Origin: a virus
Lineage: Duplodnaviria > Heunggongvirae > Uroviricota > Caudoviricetes
DNA length: 22,967 nucleotides
Virus record (IMG/VR): IMGVR_UViG_2687453563_000005
Direction: 5' to 3' (one strand)
Shown here: positions 2,304 to 21,713 of the stretch, piece after piece
Numbering within the stretch: the first letter of the stretch is position 1
Layout of the letters: every line of letters starts with the position of its first letter
Notes under the pieces: model-generated
Database searches by the model: none
Seen by the model: the letters and a program-made list of their open reading frames with translations, nothing else
Told to the model about the DNA's origin: nothing
Position numbers and translations under genes: made by a program

Positions 2304-3122
<819 letters not shown>

Positions 3123-3141
3123 GTCTTTAAGTGATAAGCAT

Positions 3142-3189
3142 AAACCGCAGCACGTCATGCATACGTCGTGTCTGCGGTTTTTCTTTTTT
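3142..3189 (+). terminator. Rho-independent terminator-like hairpin after the GIY-YIG gene
   Basis: aaaccgcagcacg...cgtgtctgcggttt imperfect stem followed by tttttctttttt. Confidence 0.5.
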
Positions 3190-3374
3190 GCTTACACGGT
3201 GTCTGGTTCTTCTGGCCACTCAATATCAGGTGCAGTTGATGTATCAACACGGTTCAGCAACACCCGATACTTTTTCCATGCGGCCAGTAACGCTTTCTCT
3301 TCCTCCGTTGCGATTTCCAGCTCAACAACAGTCTGAACGTACCGGGAACAGCCTCCTTCAGAGCTTGAAGGATA

Positions 3375-6300
3375 TCAATGTTCGCTTCCTGTTAACTGCC
3401 CGACAAGTGCAACCAGTTCGCTTACCTGATTTTCCAGAGTGGTGATCCGGGTGCCTGCTGTTGCCAGATTTTGACGTAGCGTTGTGTTTTCCTCTTCCAG
3501 CGCGGTAACGCGATCATCTGTTTCACGGGCGACCTGAACAAGTAAGCCCGTCACGGCGGCGTAGTCAACATTCAGATAACGCGTTTCTTCACGTAATTCA
3601 TTGCCGTCAACCGTTGGTCCCTGCAACTCTTTACCGTAATGAGTGAATGAGCCTACCGCTTCCGGTATTGCCTCCATTGCTTCCTGTGCAATAACACCAG
3701 CGTAAGGCAGTCCGTTTTCCTTAAGTGTGTAGGTGTACCCGTTCATTTTACGGATAGCTTCGGTTGCGTCACTGATAATCTGAATATTGTCTTTCAGCTC
3801 GCGGTCTGATAACTGATTCAGTGTTGTACAGTTAATAGCACCGTTTACATCAAACAGCTGACCTGACGATGTTTTTTGAGCATAAAACAGATACGCGGCA
3901 GTCGTTCCAACCTCAAAAACGTTTTGTCGATCACCTGAACCCCACACCTTGACAGCAAATGGTAGTTCTGTATTACCTAAGTTCTGTAAAACAAAACGAT
4001 TGCCAGTCCCTGTTTGTTTTGTAAGGGTTAAATCAACAGTTGAGTTAACCTCATCCTTGTTGATAGTGAGCGCCTGCGCTGTAGCCCCGTTAACAGCACC
4101 TGTTTTGAGTTGAACCGCGCCGTCATTACCATTTAGCAGTATCTCAGCTCCGCTAAAGAAATTTTTTAGCGATAGCATCTTACTTACGCCGACTGATGAA
4201 CCCAACGCCCACGCGAGAGAATTACCGGTGCTATCAAACCCACGTACAAAGCAATCCATTTTGCTATAGTCTGACGTGCTTCCAAGGACATCAATCCGCC
4301 CTCCGCCAGATTTTATCGGGTTAGATGTGGTTAATGACCTGACAGCAATATCGGTAGATGAATTGAGATCGTCTACTGTTAGTAATTTCTTCCATTCCTG
4401 CGTCGTTCCATTTTCAATTGTTCTTCCCCAAAAACCGGAATTGCGGCCTCCGAACTGCACAGCATAATTTTTACTAAATTGAACATGAATGCCGCCAAGA
4501 ACCATAGAGCCTGCCGGGCCGTTTGTACTGCCTGCAATTGATCTAAATTTGTCGACGTTATCAGTATGCTGAGCGTTCCAGTCATGACCTGTTAATGTTG
4601 CAATTCCTGAGTTAGCTGTAATTAACCCAGACGCTTTAAGATTCTGCACATCAATTCTGTCGTTTGCGAAATTATATGCAATTGCGTTACTAACGCTTCC
4701 GGCATCATCATAATCGCGTTTCTGAATAAACCAGTCGCCAGCATTAGCAATGAGAGTATAAGTAGGCGTGTTAGCCGGGCGATCTGTTTCATTAAATCTT
4801 ATTGCTGGGTTAGCGCTCCTTATTTGTAAAGGTTTTTCAACCGTTGATTTCAGTATCGCACTATCTACAATTAAATTACCTTCTGAATTAAGGTTTAGAT
4901 ATTTTGAAGCACCAGTTGAACCATCGTATGTAAACCTTATTGTTAATTGACCTGGCTCATTTGATAAAGTTTCAACATACATATCAGCACCAAGACGCAC
5001 AGTGCTGTCAGTTGCTAACAGTCTTGTATGGAGAATTCCACTAGATGTGTATGTATTGGTCGAATCACTATATCTATCAAGAAATAGACTGTTAAGTTGA
5101 GGGCTGTTGTTCCTACCTAAGCCAAGATTCGTTCTGGCACCATCAACAGTTGCCGCATTAGTGCCTCCTTGTCCAATAGGTAATGGAACCCATGACGATC
5201 CGTTATGGCAACCCCACAATCCAGATGTTGACACCTGAAGTCGTGGCGCTGATGGTGAGTAATTCGAATAAACGTAAGTAGTCGATTCGCCTTCTTCAAT
5301 TCTTTCTGTTAATACTATTTTTTTCCATACACTCCAACCTTGTGTGCTGGTATATATCCTTCTATAAAGAATTGATGAATTGTTATATACAAAATAGCTC
5401 TGGATACAACCATCACTACCATTAGCACCAGTTCTTTGCACTAACAATGCACCAGCAAGCTGTATCGGGTAATTTAGTTCTGGCTTTGCGTTGGCAGACA
5501 TTGGTTGGTAATAAAAACCGGCTGTAGTACCTTTTATATCGTTTAAGTTCGTATTCGCATCAAGGCCAGTTTTTGCTTCAAACATGACTTCAAGTTTAGA
5601 GCGCGCTGTACTTGCATCATTCGCCCCTGTGCCACCTTGCGCAACTGCGAGCGGTTGCCATCTACCAGCTTTAGGGTTAAATGCGCCCCACTGACCGTCA
5701 GCATCAACCTGTAAGTAACAGCCGTCCGCCTGAACGTCAGTAGATAAAATGATGGTTCTTGTGTCGCTTGAACGCTGAAATCGGATAACCTCATCTTTTC
5801 TTGCGTGGCGTGTCCATTGCGGGCCTATTGTCGGATTCCAGCGATAAGTATAAAGCGAGCGCGTAGCCCATCCCTGAAATACACCTGTATACGCTGGTGT
5901 TCCATCTACCTGACTAATAAACCCCGTAAGACTGCTTTCACCGGATGCAATCGATGGAAATCCTTTTGCATTACTCATAATGCGCATAAATCCGATATAC
6001 CCTGATGGGTTGCCGGAAATATCAGGACAATCACGCGGGGCTGAGCCAAGACCGATATTATCGCCAACAATTAATTGCGCCTGGTTGCGATAATTAAGTG
6101 CGTCCGCCGCAGATTTCGCCGCGTTTGTTTCACTGGATTTAGCATTAGTTTCGCTGGCTTTAGCGTTTGTTTCGCTGCTCTTTGCTGCTGCCTCGCTATT
6201 TTTCGCGTTGGTTTCTGATTTTTTGGCTGCTGTCGCGGAGTTTGCCGATGCAGTTTGTGAGTCTGCTGCCGCCTGTGCGCTGTTACCCGCAATATAAAGG

Positions 6301-7082
6301 CGTCCGTCCTGCATCTGCTGCAGCTTCACTGCCCACATGCTGTTCAGGTTATTATTTGTATCAACCTGAACCTTCTGTATCTGCTGGATCGCTGCACTCT
6401 GGTCTTCCAGTTTCTTATTGACGGTCTGTGTTATTTCATTGCTGACATCCGTTATGGACGTCCTGATTTCAGTCAGGTCAGGCGCAAGCTGACCGTTATC
6501 AATCTGCGTCCACAGCTCCTGAGCCAGATGGGTTTTCCCTATCCGGATATTAAACGGGCGCGGCGGCAGGTTATCCACCACCACCGAGGCCAGATACTGC
6601 GAGGTGGTTTTGCCCTTAATGGTGATGTCTTTTTCCGTCACCCAGCCACCATTACGCTGTATCTGAACCAGCAGGCGAACTTCCGACGGATTCCGGTCCC
6701 CCTTTGAGGTGGTTTCCACCAGTGCCTGCACGCCGAAGGTAAAGCGCAGACGGTCGATGTTTGCAGACGTAATGGTGCGGGTGATCGGCGTGTCATATTT
6801 CACTTCCGTACCCAGCACCGTCTCGGAGCCGGAGGATTCAAACCCCTCCGGCGGTGTCTGCTCCTGCTCACCGGCACGGAACACCACCGTGACACCGGAG
6901 ATGTTGGTATTCCCCTCAGTGTCCAGCACCGGCGTACTGTTCAGCAGCTCGCTTTTTAATCCATCCACCGGACCTTCAACCGGCCCTTCGCTGATGGCAT
7001 CGATCACACTCAGCAGCTGCGTGGACTTCAGGTTGTCCTTCGCTTCGCGCGGGGTATGCCCCTTACTGCTGCCTTTACCCAT
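3375..7082 (-). CDS. Mosaic tail fibre protein (1235 aa): lambda J-like N-terminus, short J C-region segment, Stf-like SETNAK repeats, fibre domain, C-terminal S74-type intramolecular chaperone
   Basis: Starts MGKGSSKGHTPREAKDNLKSTQLLSVIDAISEGP... (lambda J N-terminus as recalled); then MWAVKLQQMQDGRLYIAG (J C-region-like); AAKKSETNAKNSEAAAKSSETNAKASETNAK repeats; C-terminus ...SDRELKDNIQIISDATEAIRKMNGYTYTLKENG... typical of autocleaving chaperone domain. Confidence 0.8.
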   Translation of the reverse strand: MGKGSSKGHTPREAKDNLKSTQLLSVIDAISEGPVEGPVDGLKSELLNSTPVLDTEGNTNISGVTVVFRAGEQEQTPPEGFESSGSETVLGTEVKYDTPITRTITSANIDRLRFTFGVQALVETTSKGDRNPSEVRLLVQIQRNGGWVTEKDITIKGKTTSQYLASVVVDNLPPRPFNIRIGKTHLAQELWTQIDNGQLAPDLTEIRTSITDVSNEITQTVNKKLEDQSAAIQQIQKVQVDTNNNLNSMWAVKLQQMQDGRLYIAGNSAQAAADSQTASANSATAAKKSETNAKNSEAAAKSSETNAKASETNAKSSETNAAKSAADALNYRNQAQLIVGDNIGLGSAPRDCPDISGNPSGYIGFMRIMSNAKGFPSIASGESSLTGFISQVDGTPAYTGVFQGWATRSLYTYRWNPTIGPQWTRHARKDEVIRFQRSSDTRTIILSTDVQADGCYLQVDADGQWGAFNPKAGRWQPLAVAQGGTGANDASTARSKLEVMFEAKTGLDANTNLNDIKGTTAGFYYQPMSANAKPELNYPIQLAGALLVQRTGANGSDGCIQSYFVYNNSSILYRRIYTSTQGWSVWKKIVLTERIEEGESTTYVYSNYSPSAPRLQVSTSGLWGCHNGSSWVPLPIGQGGTNAATVDGARTNLGLGRNNSPQLNSLFLDRYSDSTNTYTSSGILHTRLLATDSTVRLGADMYVETLSNEPGQLTIRFTYDGSTGASKYLNLNSEGNLIVDSAILKSTVEKPLQIRSANPAIRFNETDRPANTPTYTLIANAGDWFIQKRDYDDAGSVSNAIAYNFANDRIDVQNLKASGLITANSGIATLTGHDWNAQHTDNVDKFRSIAGSTNGPAGSMVLGGIHVQFSKNYAVQFGGRNSGFWGRTIENGTTQEWKKLLTVDDLNSSTDIAVRSLTTSNPIKSGGGRIDVLGSTSDYSKMDCFVRGFDSTGNSLAWALGSSVGVSKMLSLKNFFSGAEILLNGNDGAVQLKTGAVNGATAQALTINKDEVNSTVDLTLTKQTGTGNRFVLQNLGNTELPFAVKVWGSGDRQNVFEVGTTAAYLFYAQKTSSGQLFDVNGAINCTTLNQLSDRELKDNIQIISDATEAIRKMNGYTYTLKENGLPYAGVIAQEAMEAIPEAVGSFTHYGKELQGPTVDGNELREETRYLNVDYAAVTGLLVQVARETDDRVTALEEENTTLRQNLATAGTRITTLENQVSELVALVGQLTGSEH

Positions 7083-7142
7083 TCCTCACGCTCCATAAAT
7101 GACAAAACCGCCCGCAGGCGGTTTCACATAAAACATTTTGCA

Positions 7143-8069
7143 TCAGCGACCAATCACCACAACCTGACCACCGTCCCCTTCGTCTGCCGTGCTGATCTCC
7201 TGAGAAACCACGCGAGACCCCACGCGCATTTCCCCGTACAGAACAGGCAGAACATTGCCCTGGGCAACCATGTTATCCAGTGAGGAGAAATAGGTGTTCT
7301 GCTTACCGTTATCCGTTGTCTGTGTACGGGGAGTTCTGGCTTTCGGTGCCAGCATCTGCGCCACACCACCGAGCACCATACTGGCACCGAGAGAAAACAG
7401 GATGCCGGTCATACCACCGGTCCCAATGGCTGCCCCCCATGCTGCAAGGGTGGCTCCGGCGGTAAAGAATGATCCGGCAATGGCGGCAGCCCCCAGGACA
7501 ATCTGGAATACGCCACCTGACTTGGCCCCGGCGACTCTGGGAACAATATGAATCACAGCGCCATCAGGCAGAGTCTCATGTAACTGCGCCGTTAATATGT
7601 GCTGTTTGAGTTGACTTTCTTTTGCCGCATAGCCGTCACTTTTGCCGCGATATGGCCCCTGGTAATGTTCAGCAAACAGAACGCGTTCTGTTGCGGGAAA
7701 ATATGCGCGCAGACTTTCTTTATTACACCCGTTCCATCGTCCGGACGGCTTCGCCCAGATAATATGGTTAAGAACGTTGAAACGTTCACGCATCATGATC
7801 TCGATATCAGATGCGAGGCGATGTCCACAGAACAGGTAAAGGCTTCCGGCAGGTTTCAGCACCCGCCAGAACTGAGCCAGACAGTGGTCCAGCCACTTCA
7901 GGTAATCTTCGTCCCCTTTCCACTGATTGTCCCAGCCGTTGGGTTTCACCTTGAAGTACGGCGGATCGGTAACAATCAGGTCAATGGAATCATCAGGCAG
8001 GGACTGAATAAAATGCAGGCAATCAGCGTTGATTAAATCAACACTGTTTATTTTTACAGTATTTTTCAT
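7143..8069 (-). pseudogene. In-frame chimera: N-terminal fragment of a DNA N6A/N4C methyltransferase (~160 aa, DPPY motif) fused to C-terminal ~145 aa of lambda-like tail assembly protein I; junction near 7590
   Basis: N-part has IVTDPPYF and post-motif-IV region but no downstream FxGxG SAM motif; C-part TAQLHETLPDGAVIHIVPRVAGAKSGGVFQIVLGAAAIAG...VVVIGR matches lambda gpI C-terminus as recalled; lies immediately upstream of the J-like gene as I does in lambda. Confidence 0.65.
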
Positions 8070-8685: not shown

Positions 8686-10017
8686 ATGTTAGATACACTA
8701 TCTTTCACTGAACGTGACGAGTTCCAACGAAGAAACATCGCTGAAAATATCATCAAGTTGCTAAAACCAGAGGCAGACATTTCACCACTGGTAATAGACG
8801 GCGCATGGGGAACAGGGAAAACAGAATTTAGTATCAAACTGAAAAATCTCATTATTGAGCAAGAAACTGAATCTAAAGTTGTTTATATTGATGCCTTTAA
8901 AGGGGATCATGCAGAATCTCCATTACTTCTCATAACCTCTGCAATTGCCAGCATTTTGCCTGAGGAAGAAAAACAACACTTCATTAAGAGATCTCTTCCT
9001 GCAATTCGCTTTGGTTTAAAAACGGTACTAAAAGCTGGTGCAGGTTGGTTTTTACGACAGGAGGCTAGTGAAGTTGCCGAAGAATTCCAAGATGCGATGA
9101 AGAAAGCAAGCAATGCAGCAATAGATGGGACTATTGAAAATTTGCTTGAAGACCATATGGACTCAGAGAAAAACATAAATTCACTTAAATCCTGCATCGA
9201 AAGCATATCAAAAAATCAAAAAATCGTAATTATAATTGATGAATTAGACCGATGTAAGCCGAGTTTTTCAACAAATGTCATTGAAACAATAAAACACATT
9301 TTTGACATCAATAATGTCTTTTTTATTTTAGTTACAAACACAGAACAATTAAAAGCATCTATAAATCATATTTATGGTTATAGCATTAACTCACAAAAGT
9401 ATCTTGACAAGTTTATAAAATATACCATCACGCTTCCAGATACATGTTTGATAAATGGTCACAACGTATGTAAAGCCTCTGTTATATATTGGGATTACCT
9501 TGTAGAAAAAACAAGGTTATTGAATAAAATCAATAGATTATCAGGTTACTTTATCCGTGATTTAATTCAACGAACCAACTTATCATTACGTGAAACACAA
9601 ACATTTTCACGCAATCTTAACATTTTCCAACTGTTAAACGACGATGAGAACAAAAGCAGTGATCCTTTAATAAATATGATCTTTGTCGTAGCTGCCTTCA
9701 TACATTGCTTTGGTAACAAGGAAAAACTAAAACAAGAAATTACCGCTGAATCTATATCTTATTTAGCAGACCTGCTTAACATAAAAGAAATACCTTATTC
9801 TTATGAGAGAAGATCGCAAATCCCTGAAATATCGATTGTATTCTTCGGAATAATTAAAGACAGTATTACTCTTAATGAGCGATTTGCCCCTAAAAGTGAT
9901 GAAGAACTTAAAAAATTCACAAATGTTTATACTGATTATGAACACATAAATTTTTGGAGTACTACACCCAGAGAGTTATTGATAAAATATATTAATCAAA
10001 TGTCATTCATCCAGTAA
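8686..10017 (+). CDS. KAP-family P-loop NTPase (443 aa), AT-rich, apparently soluble
   Basis: Walker A GAWGTGKT near residue 40; Walker B-like VIIIDELDRC near residue 185; composition far more AT-rich than flanking phage genes; opposite strand to the Q operon. Confidence 0.8.
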   Translation: MLDTLSFTERDEFQRRNIAENIIKLLKPEADISPLVIDGAWGTGKTEFSIKLKNLIIEQETESKVVYIDAFKGDHAESPLLLITSAIASILPEEEKQHFIKRSLPAIRFGLKTVLKAGAGWFLRQEASEVAEEFQDAMKKASNAAIDGTIENLLEDHMDSEKNINSLKSCIESISKNQKIVIIIDELDRCKPSFSTNVIETIKHIFDINNVFFILVTNTEQLKASINHIYGYSINSQKYLDKFIKYTITLPDTCLINGHNVCKASVIYWDYLVEKTRLLNKINRLSGYFIRDLIQRTNLSLRETQTFSRNLNIFQLLNDDENKSSDPLINMIFVVAAFIHCFGNKEKLKQEITAESISYLADLLNIKEIPYSYERRSQIPEISIVFFGIIKDSITLNERFAPKSDEELKKFTNVYTDYEHINFWSTTPRELLIKYINQMSFIQ

Positions 10018-11425: not shown

Positions 11426-12235
11426 TCAATGAACGGTATCGAGCAGCTTTAACAGCTCAGGGAATCGGGATTCGAAGAAATGCGGCTGCGTCTCGCGCGG
11501 ATTTGCAGGACTGGTGATGTTCTTGCCGAACATGCAGCCTTTCGCCGTCAGCGACCAGAATTTTTTGATGTTGTTAATCGCTGTACGGCTGTATCGTTCG
11601 CGCTGTTCGACGATCCCCAGCTTCGCCATCTGGTGATATGCCTGATTAGCCGTAAGGCGGATACCATACTGTTTCAGCAGTGCACTCAGCGACAGTGTCG
11701 GGCGACTTGAGCCATCAGGCGCGTCAGCAGGAGCATCAATGGCATAGCGCGGTGCCAGATTCGGTAAGCCAACAGCCTCCTGGAGTTTCTGACAGGCCCC
11801 AAGCACTGAAGAGTTAGACAGGTTTAACTCCCTGCGCATAAAGTCCAGCAGAATCACGCCAGCCTGCATCTTGTCAGCAGCCTGCCCGGATAATTTTTCC
11901 GGTGCGCTGGTTACCATATCGAAAGTACGGATCACCTTCAGATGGAATGACGGGCTGATCCACATTGCATAGGCATACACCAGTTCTTTGCAGACATACG
12001 TCCCCTGGTTATTTCCGCCATTAATGACGCTAACTGGTTGATTTTGTTCCAGAGGCGGAATTCCACCCTCGGTGAAAAGTTGTTCAATCAATTCACAGGT
12101 TTGCTTATTGGAGAGCCAGTATTTCGGGCGGTTTTTTTGTTCTCCCCCGGCTGCCCTGTGCAGATCGTTCAGGCTGTAACGCCCATAAGCATCACGACGA
12201 ACTTCAATACCATCAATGACCATCAGATTATTCAT
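11426..12235 (-). CDS. KilA-N domain protein (antirepressor-like), ~269 aa
   Basis: MNNLMVIDGIEVRRDAYGRYSLNDLHRAAGG...PKYWLSNKQTCELIEQL fits KilA-N; GAGGAG Shine-Dalgarno 9 nt upstream of the ATG at 12235 (the ORF-track start at 12268 overlaps rusA). Confidence 0.7.
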   Translation of the reverse strand: MNNLMVIDGIEVRRDAYGRYSLNDLHRAAGGEQKNRPKYWLSNKQTCELIEQLFTEGGIPPLEQNQPVSVINGGNNQGTYVCKELVYAYAMWISPSFHLKVIRTFDMVTSAPEKLSGQAADKMQAGVILLDFMRRELNLSNSSVLGACQKLQEAVGLPNLAPRYAIDAPADAPDGSSRPTLSLSALLKQYGIRLTANQAYHQMAKLGIVEQRERYSRTAINNIKKFWSLTAKGCMFGKNITSPANPRETQPHFFESRFPELLKLLDTVH

Positions 12236-12254
12236 ACTTCGTTTCTCCTCTTGA

Positions 12255-12644
12255 TCAGGCGGCTGCACCCGCCGTTTTCTCGTACTTACTGATAGTGATC
12301 TCGACCTTCCCTTCCGGGATAACCGGTCCCCACTCCACCAGCATTCTTTTCACCTGGCTGTCGTCTTCCCACACACCCGCGTGGGTCAGGGCGTCAAACA
12401 GCGCCTTGTTATAGTTGTCCAGATCGCGGATCCGGTTATCCGGAGGAAACAACACGATCTCCACTGAAGCAGGTGCCGACGTTGGTTTCGGCAGACGACG
12501 TAACTGCTCAACTATTGCTGTGCACGCCGCACTTTGGAATTTTCGCCCCGCCGCGCTTATCAGGCTCTTACCAGCAAATGCCCCTTTGTTGGGGTGTCGC
12601 CAGTAGGTGTTCACGCTGGGTGGAAAAGGCAGAATCAGCTTCAT
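12255..12644 (-). CDS. rusA: RusA-family Holliday junction resolvase (129 aa)
   Basis: LPFPPSVNTYWRH, RDLDNYNKALFDALTHAGVWEDDSQV match RusA signature; ATGA start/stop overlap with upstream gene. Confidence 0.85.
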   Translation of the reverse strand: MKLILPFPPSVNTYWRHPNKGAFAGKSLISAAGRKFQSAACTAIVEQLRRLPKPTSAPASVEIVLFPPDNRIRDLDNYNKALFDALTHAGVWEDDSQVKRMLVEWGPVIPEGKVEITISKYEKTAGAAA

Positions 12645-12967
12645 ACTTTCAGCCCCCTCTCATGTAACCAGTGGGCTGCACGCAGCCTTGCGTTTTCCTC
12701 ACCGGCAAGCAGTGAGCGGATAATCCCGACCGCCTCGCTGTCGTCGTCCTTCACCGCGGTATGAAGCGTGATCCCCCGGGCCACACCACGCTTTATCGTG
12801 ATGACGCCTTTTTTCTCCAGTGCGCGAAGATGCTCCACCGCTGCATTCACCGAACGGTATCCCAGCATGGTTGCCACCTCCTGATTGGTTGGCGGGAAGC
12901 CGCGTTCTTTCTGATAAGAAATCAGCATATCCAGCACCTGCTGCTGGCATTGAGTTAACGTCGTCAT
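12641..12967 (-). CDS. LexA N-terminal DNA-binding-domain homologue lacking the S24 peptidase domain (108 aa)
   Basis: MTTLTQCQQQVLDMLISYQKERGFPPTNQEVATMLGYRSVNAAVEHLRALEKKGVITIKRGVARGITL aligns along the LexA winged-helix domain; no Ser/Lys protease region follows. Confidence 0.7.
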   Translation of the reverse strand: MTTLTQCQQQVLDMLISYQKERGFPPTNQEVATMLGYRSVNAAVEHLRALEKKGVITIKRGVARGITLHTAVKDDDSEAVGIIRSLLAGEENARLRAAHWLHERGLKV

Positions 12968-13617
12968 GCCGCCATCTCCCTGACCAGTTTTTCTGCCTGC
13001 TGGCGAATCTGCGCCAGAAAGGCCTCACCACATGCCTCAAGTTCATCGCGCCCGATGTAGCTGATTGCCGGTCCCTTCCAGGTCTTGTCGAAAACAGCAA
13101 TAGCACCAGCGAAGAAAGCGCCTGTCGGCACCTGCTTCTCATCCTTCGGGATAAACCAGGCAGGCAGTTCAAAACCAATACGCCCGCGAATAAAAGCAAT
13201 ATGATCTACATCTTCCGGCCACCACACTTCGCTGGTGGCAGCTTTGATCAGGAAAACATAGCGCCCGCCTTTATCACGCATGGCACTGGCATGCTTCATG
13301 ATGTAACGCATGCCGGTGATGTATTGCCCCTCATGCTGACTGGCGCGGCTGTATGGGGGATTACCAAAGGCAGCACCTTTAAGCTCCGCAAGGCGTTCTG
13401 ACCAGTCATGCGCCAGCGCGTTGTCTTCCGCCGTGTAATACGCAGCACATTTGGCGTTATCACCGTCAGTGAACAGATCCAGAACAAACGGGCCAAACAG
13501 GGTGTTAATTCCCCAGAAAATGTTGTCCGGCGTGCGCCACTGATCGCCCACTTCCTTCAGTTCATGGGCTGGTTTGTTCCGCAGTTCCACCAGCGCCTGG
13601 CAATATTTATTACTCAT
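12964..13617 (-). CDS. Phage orphan DNA N6-adenine methyltransferase (Dam-like), ~217 aa
   Basis: FGNPPYS motif IV and overall phage Dam-family resemblance; start ATG at 13615..13617 overlaps upstream stop; no adjacent restriction gene. Confidence 0.8.
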   Translation of the reverse strand: MSNKYCQALVELRNKPAHELKEVGDQWRTPDNIFWGINTLFGPFVLDLFTDGDNAKCAAYYTAEDNALAHDWSERLAELKGAAFGNPPYSRASQHEGQYITGMRYIMKHASAMRDKGGRYVFLIKAATSEVWWPEDVDHIAFIRGRIGFELPAWFIPKDEKQVPTGAFFAGAIAVFDKTWKGPAISYIGRDELEACGEAFLAQIRQQAEKLVREMAA

Positions 13618-13907
13618 TAAGCCCCCACGTAATTCCCTGAGAGATACCACTCTTCACCTGATGCAGCCCGCTTACCCTGGCGACGCGCCTTACGCGTTAA
13701 CCAGCCTTCTGCTTCCAGCCGTGCGATAGCCGTTCTGACGGTACTCATCCCCGCGCCAATCTGACGGGCAATGGTTTCAATTGATGGCCAGCACACACCT
13801 TCGTCATTACTGAAATCAGCCAGGCGGGCCATAATTGCCACGCTGGATAACTTCATGCCTGATGCAGCGCAACCATCCCATACATAGCCGGTTAATTTAG
13901 TGCTCAT
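13617..13907 (-). CDS. Small winged-helix DNA-binding protein (96 aa), possibly replication- or regulation-related
   Basis: SIETIARQIGAGMSTVRTAIARLEAEGWL HTH-like segment; function not assignable from sequence alone. Confidence 0.5.
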   Translation of the reverse strand: MSTKLTGYVWDGCAASGMKLSSVAIMARLADFSNDEGVCWPSIETIARQIGAGMSTVRTAIARLEAEGWLTRKARRQGKRAASGEEWYLSGNYVGA

Positions 13908-13916
13908 GACCGACCT

Positions 13917-14255
13917 CTATTTCCCTGAATTTACGACGAAACTGTTCGAGCGGGCTGAAGCACTCATGCTCATAGCCTTCGCGGAGGTAGATAACCCGTT
14001 GTGTTTCCGGTTCCCAACGAATGACTCTGACGGGCACTCCGTAGTGATCTTTGAACCAGCGGTTAACTTGTCGCAAAGGACTGTCTCCTTCTGCCGGTTG
14101 AAATCACCCACAGCCCACTCTGCAAAGCTGTGGGTTACAATTTCCCTGTCACCTGGTACATTTACTGCATAGCAATACTCCACCTTCGCTTTTCCACCCG
14201 GTACAGGAAGCGCAATCAGTTGCGAGCGACGGTAGTGTGTTGTTAAACTGTTCAT
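13917..14255 (-). CDS. Hypothetical protein (112 aa), translationally coupled to upstream gene
   Basis: ATG at 14253..14255 overlaps the upstream TGA (ATGA); no motif recognised; contains an 8-bp inverted repeat cccacagc/gctgtggg at about 14110..14137. Confidence 0.4.
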
Positions 14256-14866
14256 GCGTTAGTTTCTCCACAACCAGAAGCAATCGACGCCACGACGCCC
14301 GGAGCTGCACACTCGCGGGCGTCATTACTTTCTGAAATGCAAAAAATTTTGTAGACAAGTGCTGCATGCTCCTGCAGCTTCGAAATTGAGAGATACAGCT
14401 CGTCGTTAATTGCTGTCTTCTCATGCGGTTCCACTACACCGTCTTCGATTGCTGAACGAATCTGTTTTGAATAACTGCCGATCTGTTCAATGACTTCCAG
14501 CAGACGCTGGTTAATATCGGCGTTGTCCACATCCTCGACGTCAGGAAGAGACACAAAGACGCCATTTGCAGACTGCGCCACAGCGTCAGCAATGAAGTGA
14601 GTTCCACCAGCACGTTGCAAAATCATTGCCCATCCCAGCGGGAAAATCTGATCGCCATCGGCACGAAGGCGGTTAAATAATGCGTTCTCTGTTACATCCA
14701 GCCAGTCAGCTGCTTCAGCGTAACCCCCCGGCAACGCTGCGATAGTTTTTCTGACAGCTTTCACGTACCACTCAGGCTGTTTTTCTACTTTCCAGTGATG
14801 CTTACCCACGGTTAGCCTCATCGTTCTGTGGTTTCTGTTAATCGATTTATCCATTAGATTTTTCAT
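14252..14866 (-). CDS. CII-like/YdaT-like phage regulatory protein in the post-cro position (~205 aa; start uncertain, ATG at 14866 or 14854)
   Basis: Sits directly downstream of cro as in lambdoid prophages; family assignment from position and general resemblance only; ORF-track start at 14923 is a GTG inside cro. Confidence 0.5.
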
Positions 14867-15047
14867 AAAGCTCAGGTTTAAATGGCAACCGTCCGCAAGT
14901 TCTATATGCAGCTTCTGCTGCACGTCCTTTTGGAATTAACTGGCCCGGACGGTTTCGCCACTGATAAACGGCTTCAGTTGTTATGCCGAAAAAAGCAGCA
15001 ACTTTCTCAATACTGCCGAAGTAGCTTTCGATATCGTCAGTTGTCAT
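14847..15047 (-). CDS. Cro-like repressor (66 aa, YdaS/Cro-type HTH)
   Basis: Small HTH protein (FGITTEAVYQWRNR) transcribed divergently from the cI-like gene. Confidence 0.7.
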   Translation of the reverse strand: MTTDDIESYFGSIEKVAAFFGITTEAVYQWRNRPGQLIPKGRAAEAAYRTCGRLPFKPELYEKSNG

Positions 15048-15144
15048 ACGCCCTCCAAACTAAGTTTTATTAGATGCTAATTACAAATCTATCTTTGGTC
15101 AATAAAAACTAAGATTACTTAGCAATTAAAGAAATGGTGCTCCT
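15048..15144. promoter_or_regulatory. cI/cro divergent promoter-operator region
   Basis: 97-bp AT-rich spacer between divergent repressor genes with repeated CTAAG/CTTAG motifs (aactaagtttta, attagatgctaat, aactaagattacttag). Confidence 0.4.
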
Positions 15145-15771
15145 ATGGAAACGGTTGGTCAGCGTATAAAAGCTCTGAGAAGAGTTACCAGAACGTCCCA
15201 GAAAGAATTGGGTAAATTTTGTGGAGTAAGCGACGTTGCTGTGGGGTACTGGGAGAAAGACATCAATACCCCTGGTGGGGAGGCACTTTCGAAATTAGCG
15301 AAGTTCTTCAATACGTCAATAGATTACATTCTTTATGGTGCTGAGTTTGAAGGCAAACTCGTCACAAACATGCGCAGAGTTCCTGTAATATCGTGGGTTC
15401 AGGCTGGGCAGTTTACTGAGTGCAGGGCAGCAGAAGTGTTTAGTGAAGTGGACAAGTGGGTAGATACATCATTAAAGGTTGGTGATAACTCATTTGCATT
15501 AGAGGTTAAAGGTGACTCCATGACTAACCCTAATGGCCTCCCAACAATACCAGAAGGCGCAACAGTGATTGTAGATCCAGATGCAGAACCTCGTCATGGA
15601 AAAATAGTCATCGCTCGACTTGATGGAACAAACGAAGCTACAGTAAAAAAATTAGTCATCGATGGCCCTCAAAAGTTTTTAGTACCATTAAATCCTCGGT
15701 ATCCCAACATCCCTATCAATGGTAATTGCCTTATCATTGGTGTAGTCAAAGGAGTTCAATACGAACTCTAA
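15145..15771 (+). CDS. CI-type prophage repressor: XRE HTH plus LexA-like S24 peptidase domain (208 aa)
   Basis: N-terminal HTH (IKALRRVTRTSQKELGKFCGVSDVAVGYWE) and C-terminal autocleavage domain with GDSM serine motif and downstream Lys (VKKLV). Confidence 0.9.
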   Translation: METVGQRIKALRRVTRTSQKELGKFCGVSDVAVGYWEKDINTPGGEALSKLAKFFNTSIDYILYGAEFEGKLVTNMRRVPVISWVQAGQFTECRAAEVFSEVDKWVDTSLKVGDNSFALEVKGDSMTNPNGLPTIPEGATVIVDPDAEPRHGKIVIARLDGTNEATVKKLVIDGPQKFLVPLNPRYPNIPINGNCLIIGVVKGVQYEL

Positions 15772-15934
15772 GGCCTCTCTTCTCTAACTAAGGCACCGAA
15801 CTAAGAAAAGTTTGGTGTTTTCTCTTGCCATGACAACTAAGTTAAGTTAGATTTTATATCAAAGATAACGAACAGGCAGGACGCCCACGAAGTAGCCGCC
15901 TGGGGCATATGAAGTCCAGGATGATTCGTTAGCA

Positions 15935-15960
15935 ACAAAAAAGCGCCCTACAGGACGCTT
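15935..15960 (-). terminator. Rho-independent terminator for the 16002..16523 gene
   Basis: Minus-strand RNA forms aagcgtcc/gggcgctt stem (one mismatch) with tgta loop followed by UUUUUUG. Confidence 0.45.
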
Positions 15961-16001
15961 AGCTCTTTAACAATCTGGGTATCATCCAACCAATGCAAGA
16001 T

Positions 16002-16523
16002 TTAAGGAATCCAAGGCGAATTCAGATCTCGCCCCAACTCACGTAATGATCTTGGTCGTTCGTACATCGGATTTTTTTCCATAAGAAATTTATTTTCACA
16101 GTGAAGGCAACGGCTTGTAAGAAAATGAGAAGTTTTACCTACTGGAAGCGGATGAAGTATCGATTTTATATTTTTGGAATAACAAAGTGGGCACAGATGC
16201 ACAGTTATTTCTTTTCCACTCACAATTTCATTTTTAGAGTAAACAAAAGCACCAGAGTCAAGCTGATCAAGGACATATCCTTCTACCTTGGCACAAAAAT
16301 CTTCAAACTCTGCAATTTTTGCTTTGAGATGCATCACCTCTTCATCACGAAGGCGGATCGCATCGCCAAGAGAGAAGCATTCTGCCTGAAGCGTGATTAG
16401 TTTGTTCTGGAGTTCAATGGTTGCAGCTTTAACTTCTGCATCCGTTTTCGCGTCATTAATAACCTTAGCAAGACCGGCAGTCTCCTTTATAGCGGCCATA
16501 GCCGCAGACAGTTCAGCTATCAC
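16002..16523 (-). CDS. Hypothetical protein (~165-173 aa): N-terminal coiled coil, C-terminal CxxC...CxxC zinc-ribbon-like motif; AT-rich moron beside cI
   Basis: Heptad-like N-terminus; CPLCYS...CLHCEN cysteine pairs; own terminator; composition differs from flanks; GTG at 16523 or ATG at 16499 as start. Confidence 0.5.
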   Translation of the reverse strand: MIAELSAAMAAIKETAGLAKVINDAKTDAEVKAATIELQNKLITLQAECFSLGDAIRLRDEEVMHLKAKIAEFEDFCAKVEGYVLDQLDSGAFVYSKNEIVSGKEITVHLCPLCYSKNIKSILHPLPVGKTSHFLTSRCLHCENKFLMEKNPMYERPRSLRELGRDLNSPWIP

Positions 16524-16855
16524 GTTGAATACTCAGCTAGTTGTTGGGGATATCCAGATTAACCAAATCCTTGTTGTTGGGGAATAACTAGGTCCACCTC
16601 GCCTGATGTGGCTAAAAGCAGGCACATAACAGCTAAGTATTTTCAACCAGAGAGAATCCTTAGCGTTGTGGTGAATGCGGCTCAGCGCACGCGGGTTAAG
16701 GTTGAGGCTGACAGTCGACCTTCTGTGGATACCCACCCGCCTGGTGTGCAACCTTCGCCAGGCACCGGGAGGCACCCGGCACCACAACTTTATGCTGTGT
16801 GTAGTCCTCGCGGTACCAGTTTGTACACTTGCTTCCGGCTGGTACCGCTCTTTTT

Positions 16856-16944
16856 ACAAAACAGAGAAGAACATCACCGGACGACGGGCTCATAACCCAA
16901 TCCATCCGGGCGGCTGCCACCGCAGGTGTTCTTCTCTGTTTTGT
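16856..16944. repeat. 18-bp perfect inverted repeat (acaaaacagagaagaaca / tgttcttctctgttttgt) enclosing ~53 bp; a second 9-bp inverted repeat (cggtaccag/ctggtaccg) lies just upstream at 16811..16848
   Basis: Read directly from the sequence; located about 50 nt upstream of the YfdP-like start. Confidence 0.6.
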
Positions 16945-16992
16945 GGAGAAACCAACCGACCTTGCAGGGTCGATATGATTAGGAGCAGAAAA

Positions 16993-17355
16993 ATGGCTAG
17001 CGAACGCAGTACTGATGTGCAGGCATTTATTGGGGAGCTGGACGGCGGCGTATTTGAAACCAAAATCGGCGCAGTTCTCAGTGAAGTCGCTTCCGGTGTG
17101 ATGAACACGAAAACCAAAGGTAAGGTCTCACTCAACCTGGAAATCGAACCATTTGATGAGAACCGTGTGAAAATCAAACACAAACTCTCATATGTTCGCC
17201 CGACTAACCGCGGGAAAATTTCCGAAGAAGACACCACCGAAACGCCGATGTATGTCAATCGCGGTGGTCGCCTGACTATTCTGCAGGAAGACCAGGGACA
17301 ATTACTGACTCTTGCCGGTGAACCTGACGGAAAACTCCGCGCAGCAGGTCATTAA
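16993..17355 (+). CDS. YfdP-like prophage protein (120 aa)
   Basis: AGGAG Shine-Dalgarno 7 nt upstream of ATG at 16993; the longer 16675 ORF-track start is rejected; family call from memory of the CPS-53 yfdP/yfdQ gene neighbourhood. Confidence 0.5.
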   Translation: MASERSTDVQAFIGELDGGVFETKIGAVLSEVASGVMNTKTKGKVSLNLEIEPFDENRVKIKHKLSYVRPTNRGKISEEDTTETPMYVNRGGRLTILQEDQGQLLTLAGEPDGKLRAAGH

Positions 17356-17420
17356 TATCGTTCTTAATTAACCGATTATTTATCTCATCACTGAATATCT
17401 TTATATAGTGAGGACTTATT

Positions 17421-18245
17421 ATGTCTCAGAACTTAGACGCAACCGCAATTAATCAAATCCATGCCCTTATTTCTGCTCAGGGTGTTAATGAAATTATCAG
17501 TAAGATTGGTGCCGATGCTGTGGCATTGCCTGAGAATTTCCGCATTCATGATCTGGAAAAATTTAATTTAAATCGCTTCCGTTTCCGTGGTGCGCTTTCC
17601 ACTGCCAGCATCGATGACTTTACCCGTTACTCTAAAGATCTTGCAGATGAAGGCACCCGCTGCTTTATCGATGCCGATAATATGCGAGCCGTCAGTGTGC
17701 TTAACCTGGGTACTATTGATGAACCAGGTCACGCAGATAACACCGCCACACTCAAACTGAAAAAGACAGCACCGTTCTCTGCTCTGTTGTCTATTAACGG
17801 CGAGCGTAACTCCCAGAAGTCACTAGCAGAATGGATTGAAGACTGGGCAGACTATCTTGTGGGCTTTGATGCTAATGGTGACGCTATTCAGGCAACAAAA
17901 GCGGCTGCGGCTGTCCGTAAAATCACGATTGAAGCAAACCAGACCGCTGATTTTGAAGATAATGACTTCAGCGGCAAACGCTCCCTGATGGAGTCTGTCG
18001 AAGCGAAGACCAAAGATATTATGCCTGTGGCATTTGAATTTAAATGCGTTCCGTTTGAAGGCCTGAAAGAACGTCCGTTTAAATTACGCCTCAGCATTAT
18101 CACTGGCGATCGTCCTGTACTGGTTCTGCGCATTATTCAGCTGGAAGCAGTGCAGGAAGAAATGGCTAACGAATTTCGTGATCTGCTTGTTGAGAAATTC
18201 AAGGACAGCAAAGTAGAAACCTTTATTGGTACTTTCACCGCCTGA
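17421..18245 (+). CDS. YfdQ-like protein (DUF2303 family, 274 aa)
   Basis: Length and sequence character consistent with the CPS-53 YfdQ family as recalled; GAGGA Shine-Dalgarno upstream. Confidence 0.65.
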
Positions 18246-18257
18246 TTTCATTACTGC

Positions 18258-18279
18258 AAATGCCCCTGCGGGGGCATTT
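18258..18279 (+). terminator. Hairpin (aaatgcccc-tgcg-ggggcattt) after the yfdQ-like gene; possible partial terminator
   Basis: 9-bp perfect stem with 4-nt loop; only a short T-run follows. Confidence 0.35.
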
Positions 18280-18372
18280 ATGGAAACGTAATTGACTCAA
18301 TAATCGCCGGATGGTGAGGGCTTCCTTTTACCAGAATTCAGCGCGGTGCAGCGCATATACGTGGAGAACAAA

Positions 18373-18909
18373 ATGTCATTTATTAAAACTTTTTCCGGGA
18401 AGCATTTTTATTATGACAGGATAAATAAAGACGACATCGTTATTAACGATATCGCGGTTTCTCTTTCAAATATCTGTCGCTTTGCAGGGCATCTTTCACA
18501 TTTCTACAGCGTTGCCCAACATGCGGTGCTTTGCAGCCAACTGGTACCGCAGGAATTTGCTTTTGAAGCGTTAATGCATGATGCAACAGAAGCGTATTGC
18601 CAGGACATCCCGGCGCCACTGAAACGCCTTCTTCCTGACTATAAACGGATGGAAGAAAAAATAGATGCAGTAATCCGTGAGAAATACGAGTTGCCCCCGG
18701 TTATGAGCACGCCCGTGAAATATGCCGATCTCATCATGCTGGCAACCGAACGCCGTGATCTCGGGCTTGATGATGGCTCTTTATGGCCTGTACTGGAAGG
18801 TATCCCGGCAACAGAGATGTTCAAAGTTATTCCACTGGCACCGGGCCATGCCTACGGGATGTTTATGGAACGCTTCAACGAGTTATCGGAATTACGCAAA
18901 TGTGCATAA
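18373..18909 (+). CDS. HD-domain phosphohydrolase (YfbR/YfdR-like 5'-deoxynucleotidase family), ~178 aa
   Basis: H...HD...D pattern (FAGHLSHFYSVAQHAV...ALMHDATEAY...D); GGAG Shine-Dalgarno before ATG at 18373. Confidence 0.7.
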   Translation: MSFIKTFSGKHFYYDRINKDDIVINDIAVSLSNICRFAGHLSHFYSVAQHAVLCSQLVPQEFAFEALMHDATEAYCQDIPAPLKRLLPDYKRMEEKIDAVIREKYELPPVMSTPVKYADLIMLATERRDLGLDDGSLWPVLEGIPATEMFKVIPLAPGHAYGMFMERFNELSELRKCA

Positions 18910-19778
18910 CTCATGTAGTTAGTTTTTCTGGCGGGAGAACATCCGCATATCTTGTTCACCTGATGGAAGAACAAAGAAAGGCTGGCAATAACGTCTGCTA
19001 CATCTTTATGGATACCGGTTGCGAACATCCGCTGACATACCGCTTTATCCGGGAGGTTGTGAAGTTCTGGGACATACCACTAACTGTGTTACAGGTCGAT
19101 ATAAATCCTGAGCTTGGGCAGCCAAATGGTTATACAGAATGGGAGCCAAAGGATATTCAGACACGAATGCCGGTGCTTAAACCGTTTATGGACATGGTTA
19201 AAAAGTACGGCACGCCATACATCGGCGGCGCGCTCTGTACTGATAGGCTAAAACTCATCCCTTTCACAAAATACTGCGATAACCATTTCGGGCGAGGTAA
19301 TTACATCACATGGCTGGGTATTCGTGCAGACGAACCCCGTAGGCTGAAACCGAAATCGGGCGTCCGGTATCTTGCCGAGCTGTCAGATTTTGATAAGTCG
19401 GATGTTATCCGGTGGTGGCGAAAACAACCTTTTGATTTGCAAATCCCGGAGCATCTCGGGAACTGTGTTTTCTGCATCAAAAAGTCAACGCAAAAGCTGG
19501 GGCTTGCATGTAAAGACGAACCAGGTCTGATGCGAGTTTTTAATGAGCTGGTTACAGGCAAACACGTCAGGGATGGTCATCGCAGAACAGGTAAAGACAT
19601 TATGTACCGTGGTCACCTGACGCTTGACGGAATTGCCAGAATGTCTGCCAACAGCGACTACAGAAATTTGTATCAGGCGATGGTACAGGCCAGGCGATTC
19701 GATACCGGCTCGTGTTCAGAGTCATGTGAAATCTGGGGTGATCAATTGGAATTGGAATTCAAAGAGGTAGGGGTATGA
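18900..19778 (+). CDS. PAPS-reductase-like PP-loop ATP pyrophosphatase family protein, ~292 aa
   Basis: PP-loop motif VVSFSGGRTSAY near N-terminus; ATG at 18900 overlaps the HD gene stop (ATGTGCATAA), indicating translational coupling. Confidence 0.75.
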   Translation: MCITHVVSFSGGRTSAYLVHLMEEQRKAGNNVCYIFMDTGCEHPLTYRFIREVVKFWDIPLTVLQVDINPELGQPNGYTEWEPKDIQTRMPVLKPFMDMVKKYGTPYIGGALCTDRLKLIPFTKYCDNHFGRGNYITWLGIRADEPRRLKPKSGVRYLAELSDFDKSDVIRWWRKQPFDLQIPEHLGNCVFCIKKSTQKLGLACKDEPGLMRVFNELVTGKHVRDGHRRTGKDIMYRGHLTLDGIARMSANSDYRNLYQAMVQARRFDTGSCSESCEIWGDQLELEFKEVGV

Positions 19779-20119
19779 CAACCGAAATTAACTACCATGC
19801 ACTGCTTGAGCGCGCACGGAATAAAGTGCAGAGCATTGAGTTCGCCTTAACACAGAGTGCATTCGCTGAGATTCGCGCTGAGCTTGAAAATGATTTAGAA
19901 CTGGCACGGATTGCACTGGCATCTCTGGAAGTTGAGCCAGATGAACGCGCAGCCTATGAATTATTTATGGAAAAGCGTTTCGGTAAAACAGTCGATCGTC
20001 GGAGAGCAAAAAACGGCGATAACGAATACATGGCATGGGATATGACTCTCGGTTGGATCGTCTGGCAGCAACGAGCTGGTATCCATTTTTCAACAATGTC
20101 ACAGCAAGAGGTGAAATAA
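19775..20119 (+). CDS. Hypothetical phage protein (114 aa)
   Basis: ATGA overlap with the upstream gene and TAATG overlap with xis; no motif recognised. Confidence 0.5.
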   Translation: MTTEINYHALLERARNKVQSIEFALTQSAFAEIRAELENDLELARIALASLEVEPDERAAYELFMEKRFGKTVDRRRAKNGDNEYMAWDMTLGWIVWQQRAGIHFSTMSQQEVK

Positions 20120-20469
20120 TGGAGCCATACAGCCTCACACTCGATGAGGCCTGTCATTTTCTCAAGATATCCAGACCGACTGCCATTAACTGGATACGCA
20201 CAGGGCGTCTTCAGGCAACACGCAAAGATCCCACTAAGAATAAATCTCCTTACCTCACAACACGACAAGCCTGCATTGCGGCTCTTCAGTCTCCGCTGCA
20301 TACTGTCCAGGTGAGCGCGGGTGATGGCATAACAGAGGAAAGAAAATGTCACTCTTCCGCAGAGGTGAAATATGGTACGCCAGTTTCACATTGCCGAACG
20401 GTAAAAGATTTAAACAGTCTCTTGGAACAAAGGACAAAAGGCAGGCGACAGAACTCCATGACAAGCTAA
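20119..20469 (+). CDS. xis: Excisionase (AlpA/Xis-family HTH), ~116 aa
   Basis: [34 protein letters not shown]; resembles P22 Xis as recalled; 3' end overlaps int in another frame. Confidence 0.75.
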
Positions 20470-21509
20470 AGGCTGAAGCATGGCGGGTCAGCAAACTTGG
20501 TGAAATACCTGATATAACGTTCGAGGAAGCGTGTGTCAGGTGGCTTGAAGAGAAAGCACATAAAAAATCACTGGACGATGACAAAAGCCGGATCGGATTC
20601 TGGCTTCAACATTTCGCAGGAATGCAACTAAGAGACATTACTGAATCAAAAATTTATTCAGCAATGCAGAAAATGACGAACCGGCGTCATGAGGAAAACT
20701 GGAAACTCAGGGCAGAAGCATGCAGAAAAAAAGGGAAACCTGTTCCAGAATACACGCCAAAACCAGCGTCCGTTGCAACGAAGGCTACGCATCTTTCATT
20801 TATAAAGGCCCTACTAAGAGCCGCAGAGCGTGAATGGAAAATGCTGGATAAGGCACCAATTATTAAAGTGCCTCAACCAAAGAATAAACGGATCCGCTGG
20901 CTGGAGCCCCATGAAGCACAAAGGCTGATTGATGAATGTCCGGAGCCATTAAAGTCTGTTGTTGAATTTGCACTGGCAACAGGCTTAAGACGCTCGAACA
21001 TCATCAACCTTGAATGGCAACAAATAGATATGCAGCGCCGGGTGGCATGGATAAACCCAGAAGAGAGTAAATCAAACCGCGCAATCGGCGTTGCGCTGAA
21101 TGATACTGCATGTCGCGTTTTGAAAAAACAAATCGGGAATCATCACCGTTGGGTATTTGTGTACAAGGAAAGCTGTACCAAACCAGACGGAACGAAAGCG
21201 CCAACAGTAAGGAAGATGCGGTATGACGCAAACACAGCCTGGAAAGCGGCGCTGAGACGGGCTGGTATTGATGATTTCAGATTTCACGACTTGAGACACA
21301 CCTGGGCAAGTTGGCTGGTTCAAGCCGGAGTCCCGTTGTCAGTGTTACAGGAAATGGGAGGCTGGGAGTCTATCGAAATGGTTCGTCGATATGCTCACCT
21401 TGCACCTAATCACCTTACCGAACACGCACGGCAAATAGACTCGATCCTGAACCCATCGGTCCCAAATTTGTCCCAGTCAAAAAATAAGGAAGGTACTAAT
21501 GATGTGTAA
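20346..21509 (+). CDS. int: Tyrosine integrase, P22-Int-like (387 aa)
   Basis: N-terminus [48 protein letters not shown] and catalytic HDLRHTWAS...RRYAHL motifs; GAGGAA Shine-Dalgarno; next to thrW, the P22 attachment site. Confidence 0.9.
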
Positions 21510-21523
21510 CTTATTGATTTAAA

Positions 21524-21569
21524 TGGTGCCGATAATAGGAGTCGAACCTACGACCTTCGCATTACGAAT
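21524..21569. other. Probable att core overlapping the 3' portion of thrW; extent approximate
   Basis: Integrase 3' end lies 15 bp from the tRNA 3' end; P22-type att cores overlap the tRNA 3' part by about 46 bp; partner copy not found in the window. Confidence 0.4.
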
Positions 21570-21599
21570 GCGCTGCTCTACCAACTGAGCTATATCGGC
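21524..21599 (-). tRNA. thrW: tRNA-Thr (anticodon CGT), thrW
   Basis: Reverse complement gccgatatagctcagttggtagagcagcgcattcgtaatgcgaaggtcgtaggttcgactcctattatcggcacca folds as a 76-nt cloverleaf with CGT anticodon and CCA end. Confidence 0.9.
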
Positions 21600-21713
21600 C
21601 CTGAAAGGACATGTTCACGAACGTGAATCACGGTGGACAAGGTTAAAACTAACCGGGCGATGCGTCAATGGCCTTGTGAATCAAATGGCTACTTTTGCAT
21701 CACCCGGTTTTAT

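Follow-up and report, generated by a model that had tools for sequence, protein, structure and literature searches.

In bacteriophage lambda, the O gene contains an iteron origin after the segment that encodes its DNA-binding domain. The locus described here belongs to a related group, in whose intact members the early genes run in the order cro - ymfL (cII-like) - ymfM/DUF4222 - O - yfdN (perC-like) - dam - lexA-like - rusA - kilA-N - DUF968 - Q. Its closest described relatives are the phages SfII and Kati (complete phage genomes) and vB_EcoM-689R6 (a partial genome record), together with the e14 element of E. coli K-12, whose ymfT-ymfL-ymfM-ymfN (oweE/aaaE) genes represent the same early operon. 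We analysed a 22,967-nucleotide (nt) stretch of DNA, the IMG/VR virus record IMGVR_UViG_2687453563_000005 (the window, taken at its full length), with a focus on the interval 12964-14255. This interval is the middle of the pR early-right operon of an e14/SfII-type lambdoid prophage of E. coli. Comparison with the relatives makes it very probable that the operon belongs to a grounded prophage, replication-dead and non-inducible, at thrW-proA, in which an O::yfdN deletion removed the origin and the initiator.

The deletion lies in a 96-amino-acid (aa) open reading frame (ORF) at 13617..13907 on the minus strand, which carries an HTH_36 domain (E = 5e-12) and is a chimera of two genes. By BLASTP, its residues 1-78 match the N-terminus of intact O with 100% identity, and its residues 79-96 match, also at 100%, the 18 C-terminal residues of YfdN/PerC. 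By megablast, the whole query was covered by phage genomes in two pieces, and in the best phage records (Kati, vB_EcoM-689R6 and vB_EcoS-569R4) the matching span was ~1.1 kb longer than in the window. Window positions 12200-13675 match the 3′ end of yfdN and the genes from dam onward, and positions 13669-15100 match the 5′ end of O and the genes upstream of it. A three-way alignment shows that the O 5′ sequence switches to the yfdN 3′ sequence at GTAA, a 4-bp microhomology at 13672..13675 (minus strand), with the T^A step of the junction between 13674 and 13673. Across it, O codon 78 is joined in frame to yfdN codon 145. The site on the O side, O-A, reads CGCCAGGGT^AAC, with the breakpoint at CAGGGT^AAC and a longer context of GCGTCGCCAGGGTAACCGCAATG. 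Compared with vB_EcoM-689R6, 1,142 bp are missing, and likewise relative to SfII and Kati. To either side of the deletion, these three phages are 97-98% identical to the window in DNA and share its gene order and overlaps; unlike the window, they carry a full 313-aa O with iterons and a 162-aa YfdN/PerC. O has lost its C-terminal 235 residues, three-quarters of the gene from the 3′ side, and yfdN has lost 144 of its 162 codons.

Intact O (313 aa) corresponds to phrog_391, 'replication initiation O-like' (E = 1e-135); its N-terminal domain is of the HTH_36 type, and towards the C-terminus it matches families of DnaD-like loaders and replisome organizers. A Pfam search of this initiator gave no match to any phage O-protein family, and a PDB sequence search with it returned nothing useful. 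The C-terminal domain of ~170 aa, which follows a linker, is deleted in the window, where the ORF continues instead with 18 YfdN residues. The intact gene also holds an array of iterons: the 15-bp unit CCGTCAAAATCTGAC and its variants were matched 8 times, against 0.19 expected, in the vB_EcoM-689R6 stretch 3941-4050, the first of them ~58 bp past the O-side breakpoint. A scan of the window found three chance-level matches, all elsewhere, and none in the O region. This array is the presumptive origin of the e14/SfII-type phage family, and we know of no earlier characterisation of it. As in lambda, an N-terminal DNA-binding domain is followed just downstream, within the initiator's own gene, by the iterons; unlike in lambda, the domain is HTH_36/DnaD_N-like, the iterons are 15 bp long and no P gene follows. 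A separate P/DnaC gene is absent from this family even when intact, SfII and Kati having O and YfdN/PerC alone. The ~8 overlapping iterons of the vB_EcoM-689R6 O gene also encode a repetitive SDPSK-type linker.

The original prediction, made from the window alone, observed that O and P could not be recognised in their expected place, and this is true of the window. They look absent because the 1,142-bp deletion removed most of O, its origin and most of yfdN. As for the replication functions themselves, the prediction left a choice between their being missing and their being carried by the two small proteins encoded at 13617..13907 and 13917..14255. The first option was right, given the deletion of O, the iteron origin and yfdN; the second does not hold, as the smaller protein is an O(1-78)::YfdN(145-162) remnant and the larger is YmfM, annotated as a cell-division inhibitor. 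The 96-aa ORF is clearly homologous to the N-terminal domain of an O-type initiator, an outcome that the original prediction had named as refuting it, and the 112-aa ORF gave no match in Pfam.

A single 1,142-bp deletion fused O to yfdN and took with it the iteron origin, the replisome-recruiting C-terminus of O and most of yfdN. We propose that the consequences are as follows. The 96-aa product would be a DNA-binding stump without replication function, and the element would have lost its ability to replicate. The TAATG before dam would then be what is left of the original boundary between yfdN and dam, and normal compact operon boundaries would account for the other overlaps. Dam, the LexA-like protein and RusA would be expressed only upon lifting of the CI-like repressor. 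One point weighs against a wholly dead module. The stump is intact, in frame and preceded by a Shine-Dalgarno (SD) sequence, and it may still bind DNA in some role, such as interfering with the origins of related phages.

That the 96-aa and 112-aa proteins form a novel minimal replication module replacing O and P could be argued from their position at the O/P locus, where both ORFs are intact and have ribosome-binding sites. We consider this extremely improbable, as the 96-aa ORF consists of two joined gene fragments, the iteron origin is gone, and the 112-aa ORF is YmfM, a reported division inhibitor (bioRxiv 10.1101/2020.11.19.390815), half of which is without protein-level constraint. The arrangement is moreover private to one lineage: the exact form of the 96-aa protein was found on only two public contigs (independent Logan assemblies with the same gene order), and 5,426 complete E. 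coli genomes are without the contiguous junction, which points to a recent event. The rarity of the junction in databases might also suggest an assembly artefact, for which nothing more specific speaks. Such an error is hardly credible here, given the identical protein and gene order on the two independent assemblies, the clean in-frame join at a microhomology and the occurrence of junctions of this type at that very base in finished genomes, K-12 included.

The deletion is ordinary prophage decay except that the break falls at a base-precise hotspot shared with e14 and with dozens of other remnants. In K-12 e14, the O′ DNA is identical to that of the window where the two align, YmfM is 97% identical, and O is likewise cut after codon 78 and fused to a downstream gene. 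Alignment with intact O and with the O′ fusion of CP053785 places the e14 O′/terminase junction (CAGGGT|GATGG) within 1-2 nt of that in the window (CAGGGT^AAGCG). The outcomes differ: in e14, which integrates in icd, O′ is fused to the large terminase through a deletion of ~9.5 kb, whereas in this element, which sits at thrW, it is fused to the 3′ end of yfdN through a deletion of 1.1 kb, and the genes dam-lexA-like-rusA-kilA-DUF968-Q are kept.

A protein search with O residues 1-78 yielded 119 clusters of at most 137 aa, which we compared with intact O. Divergence from O began at residue 78 in 43 clusters, at residue 79 in 8 and at residue 80 in 3, so that 54 of the 119 diverge at residues 78-80; a further 19 diverge at residues 60-61 (12 and 7 clusters, respectively), and no other single residue accounted for more than 3. 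The tails of these O′ fusions are nearly all different and come from the C-terminal parts, whether in frame or not, of RusA, the LexA-like protein, KilA-N, DUF968, Q, O itself, terminase, gpW or an insertion sequence (IS). O′ fusions of the same kind are present in finished genomes too.

At the DNA level, counted as distinct junctions in IMG/VR scans, O-A (CGCCAGGGT^AACCGC) was the left end of 12 junctions and the right end of 6. A second site in O, O-B (ACGGCT^ATCGCA), was the left end of 4, and a site in rusA (CCGGAT^AACCGG) the left end of 6. Shifting the scan 3-4 nt upstream of O-A or of the RusA site, as a control, gave no junctions. Four different alleles of DUF968 are joined to O-A, two finished genomes carry this junction, and several right-hand sites are common to O-A and O-B (DUF968, GCGGAT^ACCGTGG; RusA, CCGGTT^ATCCCGG; aaaE, CCGGGT^AACGAT). 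A literature search on ymfN/oweE hotspots or deletion hotspots in the O gene found nothing relevant. Breaks with a different centre were seen in the C-terminal half of O, at residues 252 and 284 (GCGTC^AGCC and CCGTC^AGCAC), each with at least two independent fusions (P0130, P0132, P0142, P0144 and P0021), and these C^A positions may be further classes of hotspot.

Alignment of 48 partner sites at the junction revealed a symmetric pattern. T was present at -1 in 46/48 sites and A at +1 in 45/48, flanked by G at -3 (35/48) and C at +3 (33/48); G at -4, C at -5 (46%) and G at +5 were less strongly preferred, and positions +/-2 were free. The consensus is a weak palindrome, CGGNT^ANCCG, of ~6 bits in total. 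A weight matrix built without O-A ranked O-A 2nd of 7,021 positions in the reference region, a result that is partly circular because most partners had been selected by their pairing with O-A. The products carry the left parent's base at -2 and the right parent's at +2, which places the crossover within the TA. Nearly all events are deletions between sites in the same orientation (15/15 mapped DNA-level events and 57/58 mapped protein tails), spanning 1.1-28 kb, with junction microhomologies of 2-7 bp.

How such sites come to be used is less clear than that they are used, and we weighed two readings. One is a sequence-specific break-and-rejoin reaction, in which a recombinase, a topoisomerase or a nuclease working as a dimer would act at the T^A of CGGNT^ANCCG-like palindromes and repeatedly delete the DNA between such sites in E. 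coli prophages. The clustering of divergence points with different tails, the IMG/VR junction counts against empty controls, the crossover within the TA, the recurrence of the O-A and DUF968 pair with four alleles and in two finished genomes, and the fit of both deletions in the window and that of a sister prophage (see below) are all in line with such a reaction. The symmetry of the partner sites and the freedom at +/-2 favour it most directly. Against it, we found no candidate enzyme, the gyrase, topoisomerase I, Pin and att core sites being unlike the motif; a palindromic core should also give inversions, yet 57/58 events are same-orientation deletions; and a motif of ~6 bits fails to explain why O-B is used more often than a better-scoring GTT^AAC 29 nt downstream. 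We hold this reading only tentatively. The other reading, for which we see a real though still less than even chance, is that the sites are points of replication pausing or end protection, from which copy-choice or microhomology joining to homeologous downstream DNA proceeds, the products being enriched by selection. With the same reserve, that selection would follow abortive induction and act for loss of the origin and the lytic genes. The lack of inversions and the weakness of the motif favour this second reading: the events are deletions only, removing 1.1-28 kb of DNA downstream of O, they carry microhomologies of 2-7 bp, and the partner sites look like O-A and O-B, which is what pairing guided by homeology predicts. 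O-A and O-B also lie ~58 bp and ~112 bp upstream of the first iteron, each preceded by an iteron-like CGTC(A/G) half-site. It accounts poorly, however, for partners that match the left parent little or not at all at +/-2 and yet match at +/-3, which is odd for base pairing, for the use of O-A as the right endpoint of deletions that run leftwards, and for the RusA site, which is far from the origin and equally hot.

Several known activities were considered and set aside. The gyrase Topo-Seq consensus has the centre GGCGGTAT-N4-ATACCGCC (supplement of PMC6379681). Gyrase subunit exchange is out of register with the junctions, since GG and CC lie 10 nt apart in that consensus and 4 nt apart in the motif of the junctions; nor does ^GNNC^, the quinolone rule, fit a TA centre, and no inversions were seen. 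E. coli topoisomerase I does cut at T^A, with a requirement for C at -4 (PMC9352719). The junction sites have G at -4, with C at -5 in only 46%. For Pin/Gin-type invertases, neither the e14 Pin sites (AAACC-AA-GGTTT) nor the pix core (ACC-AA-GGT) match, and secondary integrase sites were discarded because the att core at thrW bears no relation to the motif. As a single strand, the hotspot folds into hairpins no better than shuffled sequence does (z = 0.12). RusA cuts 5′ of CC. Cleavage by this resolvase is excluded by a +2 base derived from the right parent and a crossover within the TA.

Short-homology illegitimate recombination and deletion hotspots associated with fork arrest or topoisomerases were reportedly described by Michel, Ehrlich and Ikeda. 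The present sites resemble these in having one fixed endpoint with variable partners, microhomologies of 2-7 bp and deletions only. They differ in their symmetric GNT^ANC pattern at a TA, in serving as left or right end and in their occurrence across many natural prophages, a combination for which we know of no earlier description. With more doubt than conviction, we suggest that an unrecognised, deletion-only and sequence-preferring break-and-rejoin process, of E. coli or of lambdoid prophages, repeatedly grounds prophages at the TA of CGGNT^ANCCG-like palindromes. Under the same doubtful proposal, its two hottest sites would be at codons 60/61 and 78/79 of O, just upstream of the origin, and the long-known e14 ymfN chimera, both deletions in the window and dozens of independent O′ fusions would be among its products.

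A compact overlapping operon, a common orphan Dam and a cryptic prophage without replication genes are routine. It is the recurrent TA-centred endpoints, common with e14, that lift the finding above a routine prophage remnant. If deletion does take place at a few base-precise palindromic sites, the domestication of E. coli prophages would be partly directed and mechanistically specific rather than random decay. The responsible activity, and any link to induction, quinolones and the SOS response, would then be testable with a portable site of 20 bp.

The remainder of the window also shows erosion. One end carries IS1 and truncated lambda-like tail genes, and the other carries the integrase, tRNA-Thr (thrW) and proA; no head, terminase or lysis genes were found in the window. 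A second deletion junction at 7595/7596 (minus strand) again has T^A, with the partner CCGGGTT^AACGG. It lies in a 308-aa chimeric ORF at window positions 7143-8069, which joins the N-terminal part of an N6_N4 DNA methylase to the last residues of a lambda-type tail protein I. A sister prophage occupies the same thrW site in strain 2-101 (CP053785, NZ_CP053785.1), with 100% identity over window positions 13725-22967 and 99.97% over 1-7595. In this sister, O codon 61 is fused to the tail gene L (GGCTATC|CGGCAGG, at 12701, as against 13724/13725 of the window), and an ISVsa5 insertion is also present. Its deletion and both deletions in the window fit the T^A pattern. As neither arrangement can be derived from the other, the two prophages descend from one recent ancestor and were eroded independently. 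This makes the element a cryptic prophage that has been eroded recently and repeatedly.

Upstream of the chimera, the early operon is conventional. The CI-like repressor gene at 15145..15771 (plus strand), annotated as repressor cI or as LexA family in relatives, encodes HTH_3 and S24 peptidase domains, the same Pfam domains being listed on a Logan contig, and is divergent from the early-right operon. A promoter-like site at 15102-15074 on the minus strand (TTGACC-17-TAGCAT) is a candidate pR. The first gene of the pR operon encodes a Cro-like repressor (14847..15047, minus strand; PF14549 P22_Cro, E = 4e-11) and is followed by ymfL (14252..14809, minus strand), which encodes a CII-like regulator of 185 aa (PF06892, E = 1.6e-13; NF041471 YmfL equivalog, 168 bits against a cutoff of 90). 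The start of ymfL is the GTG at 14809, according to the RefSeq coordinates in the NZ_CP053785.1 prophage and in K-12, and lies 37 nt from the cro stop at 14847.

The original prediction saw an unbroken run of overlapping start and stop codons from the CII-like gene to rusA, and most of it stands. Reading of the sequence and the ORF list at every junction placed all genes of the run on the minus strand, and four overlaps are real: ATGA at 14255-14252 (ymfL/ymfM), TAATG at 13619-13615 (96-aa ORF/dam, 1 nt), ATGA at 12967-12964 (dam/lexA-like) and ATGA at 12644-12641 (lexA-like/rusA). The supposed link between the 112-aa and 96-aa ORFs is instead a 9-nt gap, with the stop of the former at 13917 and the start of the latter at 13907. 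Here the chain is closed by a DUF4222 ORF, which overlaps the start of the 96-aa ORF by 11 nt, so that successive genes are connected by four ATGA/TAATG overlaps and one 11-nt overlap. Junctions of the ATGA and TAATG type are common in phage operons. Identical gene boundaries are annotated in the intact relatives, and these are therefore conserved, inherited gene junctions rather than chance. Translational coupling across the overlaps is plausible; every downstream start has its own SD sequence in the window, and coupling is therefore possible and not required.

The gene map thus needs correction at two places: the 96-aa ORF is an O′::′YfdN chimera rather than a new regulator, and a DUF4222 gene is overprinted on ymfM. 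The 112-aa ymfM ORF (13917..14255, minus strand), directly after ymfL, is identical to the K-12 'cell division inhibitor YmfM' in 109 of 112 residues (97%). YmfM has been described as the SOS-inducible division inhibitor of e14, SfiC (bioRxiv 10.1101/2020.11.19.390815). The DUF4222 gene, missed in the first reading of the window, lies at 13897-14076 (minus strand) and encodes 59 aa (PF13973, E = 8.6e-19; 67.3 bits against a cutoff of 27). It has a TTG start, with the SD sequence AAGGAG 8 nt before it; a Klebsiella phage homologue has ATG at the same place, and PGAP annotates the gene in relatives. It overprints the 3′ half of ymfM in the -1 frame, with an out-of-frame overlap of 160 nt, and the same overlap is found in K-12 e14, where ymfM is at 5323-5661 of the K-12 stretch analysed.

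We compared the two frames with those of the Klebsiella phage ST101-KPC2phi6.3 by Nei-Gojobori counts of non-synonymous and synonymous change (dN/dS). The DUF4222 frame gave a dN/dS of 0.03; in the ymfM frame the value was 0.39 over codons 1-59 and 6.7 over the overlap codons 61-112. Within the overlap, purifying selection thus acts on DUF4222 alone. By this pattern, only the ~60 first codons of ymfM behave as protein-coding, and the conserved genes are therefore a ~60-aa YmfM core and DUF4222, neither of which is linked to replication. A programmed -1 frameshift from ymfM into DUF4222 was rejected, as DUF4222 has its own SD sequence and start and the -1 frame has a stop ~27 nt upstream of that start. 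A clone of ymfM only, as used for the SfiC filamentation phenotype, carries all but the last 20 nt of DUF4222. Given DUF4222 inside the clone, the causal product of the published ymfM filamentation phenotype may need to be re-tested.

Downstream of the chimera, dam encodes an orphan Dam-type N6-adenine methyltransferase (PF05869, E = 1e-45; TIGR01712 equivalog, 256.5 bits against a cutoff of 97.05) whose translation contains FGNPPYS, with the catalytic NPPY motif. Because of the TAATG overlap we place its start at 13617, giving a gene of 12964-13617 (minus strand) for 217 aa rather than the 228-aa GTG ORF. The methylase is a standard phage orphan Dam with nothing unusual: in many Stx and lambdoid phages, members of TIGR01712/PF05869 are found at this point of the nin-like region, with no notable difference from this one, and GATC would be its target if it follows the family. 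None of the annotated neighbours was recognised as an endonuclease partner, and a PDB sequence search with Dam gave nothing useful. In PHROGs, phrog_33262 labels this Dam family 'phosphoadenosine phosphosulfate reductase', a wrong name that has reached the RefSeq records of SfII and mEp460, Kati and others.

The next gene (12641-12967, minus strand) encodes a 108-aa protein with the LexA DNA-binding domain only (PF01726, E = 3e-19). It aligns, through residues 1-91, to the 203-position TIGR00498 model at 70.8 bits, below the cutoff of 110.95, and is without the S24 autocleavage domain. It could compete for SOS boxes. Many lambdoid and Stx phages conserve this gene next to dam and rusA. The RusA Holliday-junction resolvase gene follows at 12255..12644 (minus strand; PF05866, E = 7e-15), and downstream of rusA are KilA-N (PF04383), DUF968/HNH (PF06147, PF16784) and Q (PF06530).

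Other genes of the window lie outside this operon. An IS1 copy and a LEM-3-like gene with a GIY-YIG nuclease domain (1187-1884 and 2349-3122) flank the truncated tail-fibre end. On the opposite strand to the early-right operon, between Q and the tail remnant, a KAP-family P-loop NTPase (8686-10017, plus strand; PF07693, E = 9e-71) is possibly a defence or moron gene. Between cI and the early-left operon, a position where exclusion genes are often found, a 173-aa ORF (16002-16523, minus strand) has paired CxxC motifs and no Pfam match.

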